1,979 nucleotides of DNA, taken from the NCBI RefSeq assembly GCF_003334815.1, contig NZ_QOWO01000090.1. One strand, 5' to 3'. This document shows, in pieces, positions 1-810 of the stretch (positions are counted from its first letter, which is position 1; each line of letters opens with the position of its first letter). Below the pieces are notes generated by a model that had not been told where the DNA came from, did no database searches, and saw only the letters and a list, made by a program, of their open reading frames with translations. Both the position numbers and the translations under genes were made by a program. This stretch comes from Escherichia coli. GTDB taxonomy: Bacteria > Pseudomonadota > Gammaproteobacteria > Enterobacterales > Enterobacteriaceae.

Positions 1-810
1 AACCAGATGGACCCGGTGTACACGCCGGCGCGAAAAATCCACCTGTACCACTGCGACCATCGCGGCCTGCCGCTGGCGCTTGTCAGCACGGAAGGGGCAA
101 CAGAATGGTGCGCAGAATACGATGAATGGGGCAACCTGCTGAATGAAGAGAACCCGCATCAGCTGCAGCAGCTTATCCGCCTGCCGGGGCAGCAGTATGA
201 TGAGGAGTCCGGCCTGTATTACAACCGCCACCGCTATTATGACCCGCTGCAGGGGAGGTATATCACTCAGGATCCGATTGGGCTGAAGGGGGGATGGAAT
301 TTTTATCAGTATCCGCTGAATCCGGTTCAGTATATAGATTCAATGGGACTGGCATCAAAATATGGACACTTAAATAATGGCGGATATGGAGCGAGACCCA
401 ACAAACCGCCTACGCCCGATCCAAGTAAATTGCCGGACATAGCGAAACAATTAAGACTGCCATATCCTATTGACCAGGCCAGTAGTGCGCCTAATGTTTT
501 CAAAACATTCTTCAGAGCATTAAGCCCTTACGACTACACACTGTATTGCAGGAAGTGGGTAAAACCAAATCTGACTTGTACGCCACAGGATGATTCCCAG
601 TATCCAGGGATGGATACAAAGACAGCAAGTGATTACCTGCCACAGACAAATTGGCCAACAACTCAATTACCACCAGGATATACTTGTGCAGAACCCTATT
701 TATTCCCAGACATTAATAAACCCGATGGGCCAGCAACAGCAGGGATAGATGATTTGGGTGAAATTTTAGCTAAGATGAAACAGAGAACATCGAGAGGAAT
801 AAGAAAATGA
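1..810 (+). CDS. Rhs-family polymorphic toxin, 3' portion (5'-partial; gene begins upstream of the window). Core end is 1-351, variable C-terminal tip is 352-807, stop TGA is 808-810.
   Basis: Frame 1 is open from base 1; the ATG at 7 is an internal Met, not the true start. The translation ends in a typical Rhs core terminus (YDEWGNLL...[45 protein letters not shown]) with the DPxGL-(17 aa)-DxxGL boundary motif, followed by an unrelated 152-aa extension. GC content by eye falls from high-50s percent to about 40 percent at position 352. Confidence 0.9.
352..807 (+). other. Variable Rhs C-terminal tip (putative toxin domain, about 152 aa, unassigned family)
   Basis: Begins immediately after DSMGL (ends at nt 351). 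AT-rich relative to the core. Pro/Tyr/Thr-rich, with 3 Cys (residues 181, 191 and 227 of the track ORF). No nuclease, deaminase or ADP-ribosyltransferase motif recognisable by eye. Confidence 0.6.
794..798 (+). promoter_or_regulatory. Ribosome-binding site for the downstream immunity ORF
   Basis: GAGGA lies 8 nt upstream of the ATG at 807, inside the 3' end of the toxin CDS. Confidence 0.45.

Follow-up and report, generated by a model that had tools for sequence, protein, structure and literature searches.

The end of the core in Rhs proteins has been defined as a pair of motifs, DPXG-(18)-DPXG (Jackson 2009, PMC2935791). Substitution of the Asp residues in these motifs has marked effects on the release of the C-terminal tip. 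In P. protegens RhsA either D1324N or D1346N kills C-terminal cleavage, and the density of the protein ends after W1350 (Gunther 2022). In P. laumondii Rhs1 the substitution D1338N abolishes cleavage, with the toxin beginning at A1343 (Jurenas 2021), and in A. dhakensis TseI cleavage is abolished by D1407A or D1429A (Pei 2020). Release of the tip was needed for toxicity in these tested systems (Gunther 2022, Jurenas 2021, Pei 2020). The original prediction for the E. coli DNA studied here held that the motif pair near its 5' end is of the kind that marks the aspartyl autoproteolysis site in Rhs/YD-repeat proteins, and this assignment is supported by the published work (Jackson 2009, Gunther 2022, Jurenas 2021, Pei 2020). 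A second body of work describes C-terminal displacement and orphan recombination in Rhs genes, in which a GC-rich core is followed by an AT-rich tip and immunity gene, and in which dissociated tips keep a piece of the core (Jackson 2009, PMC2935791; Koskiniemi 2014, PMC3967940).

The stretch of DNA that we analyzed, referred to here as the window, is 1979 nt long and was 100% identical to E. coli strain E2865. In that strain it comprises the last 810 nt of a 4,200-nt gene annotated as 'RHS element core protein', ybfC, an AT-rich spacer and the start of an ISAs1/H-repeat transposase pseudogene. The Rhs gene of E2865 (L001:5611-9810) is flanked by ybfA and ybgA and encodes a 1399-aa protein with an N-terminal DUF6531 domain, at least 10 RHS_repeat matches and the RHS domain PF03527, which identify it as an Rhs/YD-repeat protein. 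The window is the 3' end of an Rhs gene at the E. coli rhsC locus, with ybfC and then a dead ISAs1/H-rpt copy downstream. All of its features lie on the plus strand. The 3' end of the Rhs core, its C-terminal plug and aspartyl-autoprotease region, occupies nt 1-351 in an ORF that enters from upstream (NF041261, TIGR03696 and Pfam RHS PF03527), and is followed by a YbfO-type C-terminal tip of 152 aa, an uncharacterized toxin domain, at nt 352-810, with its stop codon at nt 808-810. The annotated ybfC gene (189 aa) is at nt 807-1376, and the 5' part of the transposase pseudogene, which runs off the window, is at nt 1602-1979. The pseudogene has an in-frame TAA at nt 1653-1655 and is annotated in E2865 as 'ISAs1 family transposase, internal stop'; by the K-12 annotation this dead transposase is the same copy as K-12 ybfQ and related pseudogenes. 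The spacer between ybfC and the IS remnant (nt 1377-1601) is very AT-rich, with a GC content of 0.29. A scan with promoter and terminator consensus sequences returned 8 promoter-like sites where 5.0 +/- 2.5 were expected, with nothing above background, the spacer included.

The core portion of the window was matched by two curated models, NCBIfam NF041261 RHS_core (E 2.8e-70, profile positions 1146-1261 of 1261, with an equivalog cutoff of 2000 bits that is out of reach for the window fragment alone) and TIGR03696 Rhs_assc_core (E 4.5e-24, positions 1-76 of 76, 84.7 bits vs a cutoff of 32.5). Both matches stop exactly at residue 117, the Leu of the second motif, DSMGL. Because both models finish at this residue, the motif pair is a genuine Rhs core end and not a chance occurrence. 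The position of DSMGL (nt 337-351) and the 17-residue gap before it were as originally predicted, but the first motif, DPIGL, had been placed at nt 265-279. Those nucleotides encode TQDPI in frame 1, and DPIGL lies 6 nt further on, at nt 271-285.

DPIGL was invariant in 10 of 10 E. coli core ends compared, and its Asp (nt 271-273) corresponds to D1324 in P. protegens RhsA and to D1407 in TseI. The Asp of DSMGL (nt 337-339) is 22 residues from it, and Leu|Ala at nt 351/352 lies four residues past this second Asp. This is the geometry of the aspartyl autoprotease, in which ~22 residues separate the two Asp and the scissile bond follows G-[LWF], and it equals the arrangement of D1324/D1346/W1350 and of D1338/A1343. 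By homology to those proteins, the scissile bond is predicted to be Leu(349-351)|Ala(352-354). With respect to the published consensus, DPXG-(18)-DPXG or PxxxxDPxG[LWF], the window has the DPIG and the 18-residue spacer, and departs from it in the second motif, where Ser (nt 340-342, TCA) replaces Pro. The strict PxxxxDPxGL consensus is missed by one non-catalytic residue, and in its other testable features the locus is a normal member of the Rhs polymorphic-toxin architecture.

How unusual this Ser is was addressed by a survey of one genome per species, which took as its seed a peptide pattern lying ~25 residues before the first motif and so favors neither residue. The survey yielded 84 diverse Rhs core ends with a second motif. 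Pro followed the second Asp in 79 of these, Val in two, and Gln, Ser and Ala in one each, so that Pro at this position is strongly but not absolutely conserved (~94%). The one Ser case was a DSLGL in Acidovorax, and since it carries an unrelated tip, non-Pro variants arise independently. The other K-12 core ends have DP[LMQ]GL (7/7), and in the best-aligned solved Rhs structures (RhsA 7q97, Tse15 and V. parahaemolyticus RhsP 8h8a) DPxG precedes W, L or F. Pro was present in every solved or biochemically tested Rhs/TcC protein that we retrieved. When the core alone was used as the query in a protein word-index search, whose matches were mostly short fragments, DPxGL preceded 25 of 25 unrelated enterobacterial tips and DSMGL was found only with YbfO-type tips. 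The Ser codons were TCA or TCG, each a single transition from CCA or CCG. Pei et al. describe the conservation of the cleavage residues as holding 'except for RhsA in E. coli EDL933'. This exception was not tied to the DSMGL allele; the O157:H7 rhsA-locus protein has the canonical DPIGL...DPQGL.

The second Asp position was itself slightly variable among the 84 core ends, being Asp in 81, Glu in two and Gly in one. Among these, Nitrincola has GPLGL, and both Pseudocitrobacter and Vreelandella have EPLGL (contigs L055, L020 and L025). Such ends are better candidates than the Ser variant for sites that are cleavage-dead or mechanistically altered.

Homologues of the tip were rare, with 28 clusters among 1.84 billion representatives. 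In alignments, a linker rich in Pro precedes a conserved domain of ~95 aa, in which three Cys are invariant. The tip had no match in Pfam (searched with the single sequence and with 16 family members), NCBIfam, PADLOC or a PDB profile search, and a literature search on ybfO and ybfC found no functional study. The junctions that precede tips of this family vary at the residue in question: E. coli, Salmonella enterica and Phytobacter have DSMGL, one homologue has DSLGL, a relative with an identity of only 43% has DSIGL, one lineage has DALGL, and a further seven have DPxGL. In the metagenomic locus with the DALGL tip (L010), a second downstream orphan at 9276-10154 also has DALGL, with its second motif at nt 9621. 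The locus (L010 and L011) also has a vgrG-DUF6531-Rhs gene that appears to be split into many short ORFs, probably as a result of sequencing frameshifts.

DSMGL is present in intact, full-length 1399-aa genes in E2865, strain 222, E700025 and O157:H7. The dN/dS of the tip (Nei-Gojobori) was 0.10 between two E. coli alleles, which have 8 synonymous and 3 non-synonymous differences, and comparison with one homologue of each junction type gave 0.19 (DSMGL), 0.33 (DSIGL) and 0.37 (DALGL). These tips are under purifying selection. Based on these analyses, our preferred reading, to which we give a probability of roughly 0.7, is that the window contains an ordinary and probably cleavage-competent Rhs junction carrying an uncharacterized toxin. 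Because tips fused to DS/AxGL have stayed under long-term purifying selection, we consider it probable that DSMGL is compatible with cleavage, that is, a tolerated variant rather than a dead site.

A residue conserved at ~94% must be under selection for something, and this counts against the preferred reading. The replacement of Pro by Ser might weaken or delay autoproteolysis, in which case the toxin would remain largely tethered in the shell and the family would be attenuated or conditionally activated. The near uniformity of Pro in the surveyed ends (79/84), and its presence in all of the solved and tested proteins, would be expected if this were so, but the catalytic Asp pair, the Gly-Leu and the spacing are all intact in the variant, and P, S and A interchange among near relatives of the same tip. 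Moreover, Ser or Ala has persisted across genera, with the tip under purifying selection at dS values of up to ~1-2. One strain bears on this question from another side. In O157:H7 F6294 (L095:7158-7728), ybfC is frameshifted by one additional T in a T-run at approximately codon 6, and upstream of it the gene for the 1399-aa Rhs, DSMGL and tip included, is intact. An intact toxin gene beside a frameshifted ybfC would be tolerable in a strain that failed to release or deliver the toxin. The frameshift, however, consists of one T added within a T-run and might stem from the assembly; it could also be a real inactivation, with the toxin kept without its immunity gene. Taken together, we regard a weakened or delayed cleavage as rather unlikely.

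We also weighed whether the junction is a decaying relic, with the tip and motif being non-functional leftovers of an old cassette, as the pseudogene annotation of K-12 ybfO might imply. The K-12 copy is without the N-terminal two thirds of the protein, and a dead IS copy adjoins the locus. By contrast, E2865, which matches the window, has a complete ORF for a 1399-aa Rhs, and the junction and the start of the tip (nt 150-520) were found at a coverage of at least 80% in 3,522 of 5,426 complete E. coli genomes (~65%), with approximately 11 of 36 sampled full-coverage matches annotated as full-length 'RHS element core protein'. The low dN/dS of the tip (0.10-0.37) and the conservation of the immunity gene in synteny are likewise not what would be expected of a relic, and we consider this account very improbable. 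The status of the K-12 copy as an orphan annotated as a pseudogene was nonetheless counted against our preferred reading of an ordinary junction.

The composition of the window changes sharply near the junction. GC content is 0.594 to the left of the break and 0.426 to its right, a difference whose log-likelihood ratio of 10.65 was reached by 0 of 300 shuffles, and GC3 drops from 0.74 to 0.34 across it. A computed GC profile had been named beforehand as a possible refutation of the original prediction, and the discontinuity is present. The fall had been expected to follow DSMGL, after nt 351, but it starts near nt 293: a change-point placed after nt 293-297 fits best (2-unit support interval, 234-303), and a break at 351 scores only 6.4. 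By segment, the GC content is 0.589 for nt 1-285, 0.447 for nt 286-323, 0.393 for nt 324-351 and 0.431 for nt 352-810. The possibility that the GC change-point is itself the recombination junction was rejected, as nt 286-323 are AT-rich yet near-identical in the K-12 genes rhsA, rhsC and yibJ, which differ only at nt 316, with rhsC differing additionally at nt 288. Since these three genes have the stretch essentially unchanged, its lower GC is a property of the conserved core and not a sign of foreign origin. The AT-rich core stretch uses Lys, Asn, Phe and Tyr codons.

The location of the junction was determined by aligning the surroundings of the predicted cleavage site (350 nt upstream and 120 nt downstream) from all eight core ends of K-12, from E2865 and from one other strain. 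Relative to rhsA, rhsC and yibJ, which belong to the same core subfamily, the window had 2-4 mismatches in nt 200-323 and no similarity past nt 351. With rhsA there were 2 mismatches in nt 200-323 and then 11 in the 28 nt from 324 to 351, and rhsC and yibJ behaved alike. DNA homology to the paralogous cores stops at nt 323/324, nt 322-324 being the Pro codon of PxxxxDxxGL. In the PxxxxDxxGL codons on the cassette side of the junction (nt 324-351), the protein is conserved and the DNA has diverged. As the ten PxxxxDSMGL codons have been kept as protein and not as DNA, they are part of the incoming cassette. The break that had been placed at nt 352 was therefore not upheld, as GC falls from ~nt 293, DNA homology ends at nt 323/324 and DSMGL came with the cassette. 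Because the last 28 nt of the 'core' are exchangeable, the cleavage motif is inherited with the toxin and not with the shell. The rhsB core DNA diverges already from the window-equivalent nt 300, ~24 nt before that of rhsA, rhsC and yibJ, which indicates that the junction position is tip-specific.

Comparison of the whole E2865 gene with K-12 located the exchange further upstream. The first 3,729 nt of the gene match K-12 rhsC at 97.4%, and the last 1,506 nt, comprising ~1.05 kb of core and the tip, match the K-12 ybfO orphan at 99.8%. Because the E2865 gene has an rhsC-like front and a ybfO-like end, the exchange of tips uses homology ~1 kb inside the core. The earlier proposal that the cassette was acquired by recombination at the core boundary is consequently sustained for the foreign composition of the tip and immunity gene but not for the site, since the homology lies far within the core.

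The start of ybfC overlaps the rhs stop codon, with ATGA at nt 807-810. A YbfC homologue (34-67% identity) was located directly 3' of a homologous tip in three unrelated contigs (L010, L012 and L013). By position and synteny this is a toxin/immunity cassette, a variable tip followed by a co-inherited gene, and ybfC is the presumed cognate immunity gene, whose product would be predicted to neutralize the toxin. YbfC matched no Pfam, NCBIfam or PADLOC family. YbfC and its homologues open with a positively charged, then a hydrophobic and then an AxA-like segment (ending AMA|T and ASA|M in homologues), which suggests that the N-terminal segment is a Sec signal peptide. Based on this signal-peptide-like start, a periplasmic immunity protein and a periplasm-acting Rhs toxin are suggested, and YbfC is likely the periplasmic immunity protein.

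A periplasmic site of action has also entered a different account of the junction, in which Ser or Ala in place of Pro is an adaptation of the YbfO tip family that retunes autoproteolysis, for instance by delaying it until delivery, and DS/AxGL marks a functional subclass rather than neutral drift. In that account the toxin may act in the periplasm, because the immunity protein carries a signal peptide. We give such an adaptation little credence, and return to the preferred reading of a tolerated variant at an ordinary junction.

As to export, homologous tips in other taxa adjoin VgrG, DUF6531 and T6SS genes, in two of the three contigs with a YbfC homologue. The E2865 Rhs protein begins MSGKPAARQGD..., with a literal PAAR at residues 5-8, and continues with DUF6531. 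It had no match to Pfam PAAR and no PVxxxxGE N-terminal cleavage motif, and no vgrG adjoins the rhs gene at the E2865 locus.

From these observations and by homology to the studied proteins, we infer the following model of cleavage, toxicity, immunity and export. Nucleotides 271-351 would carry the active-site end of the C-terminal aspartyl autoprotease of Rhs proteins, the domain that plugs the YD-repeat shell. After folding, the Asp residues at nt 271-273 and 337-339 would hydrolyze the Leu|Ala bond at nt 351/352 within the same molecule, freeing the 152-aa YbfO-type toxin within the shell for T6SS-type delivery. Sibling cells would be protected by YbfC, which would neutralize the toxin, probably in the periplasm. 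As for the Ser at nt 340-342, it is a one-step CCA to TCA replacement of a structural, non-catalytic Pro, and it travels with the YbfO tip family because of the position of the last 28 nt of the 'core' in the exchangeable cassette.

The architecture of this locus is textbook Rhs and the YbfO-type tip is an uncharacterized toxin of a known kind, so that there is little conceptual change. The original interpretation was right in kind and needs refinement in three respects: the boundary of the cassette lies at nt 323/324, the cassette includes the variant motif, and recombination occurs within the core and not at its edge. There is a practical consequence for the detection of Rhs toxins. Some pipelines cut Rhs proteins at PxxxxDPxG[LWF], or else at DPxG[LWF] (e.g., bioRxiv 10.1101/2024.02.26.582050). 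In a protein such as this they would see only the first motif, DPIGL, and would either start the toxin 22 residues too early or drop the protein. Cutting based on DPxG[LWF] would affect ~6% of the sampled Rhs ends. In addition, the YbfO-CT/YbfC pair, a rare toxin family, unclassified so far, whose immunity protein is probably periplasmic, is present in approximately 2/3 of complete E. coli genomes, including K-12, making it an accessible target for characterization.

The closest relative of the locus is in K-12, where ybfO and ybfC have the same DSMGL, tip and ybfC over the stretch of 99.8% identity that ends the E2865 gene (1506 nt). In K-12, ybfO is a displaced 477-codon fragment downstream of rhsC-ybfB, an orphan pseudogene, whereas in E2865 the same tip is that of the main full-length gene. 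The plug domains of P. protegens RhsA (7q97), P. laumondii Rhs1 (7pq5) and TseI are homologous to that of the window (E 5e-25 to 2e-17), with the same Asp pair 22 residues apart and a cut 4 residues past the second Asp, after G-[LWF]. These proteins differ in having DPLGW or DPLGL where DSMGL is present here, and in their unrelated toxins, and their cleavage is experimental whereas that of the E2865 protein is predicted. More distantly, the TcC subunits of Tc/ABC toxins (TccC3 and YenC2) share the YD-shell plug and autoprotease motif (E ~1e-6); they belong to insecticidal complexes exported with TcA/TcB, in contrast to antibacterial effectors of the PAAR/DUF6531 type. Lastly, the displacement model described for Rhs C-terminal ends is fitted exactly by the comparison of E2865 with K-12, with nothing essential being different, and the break in the DNA is here placed at nt 323/324, inside the PxxxxDxxGL codons.
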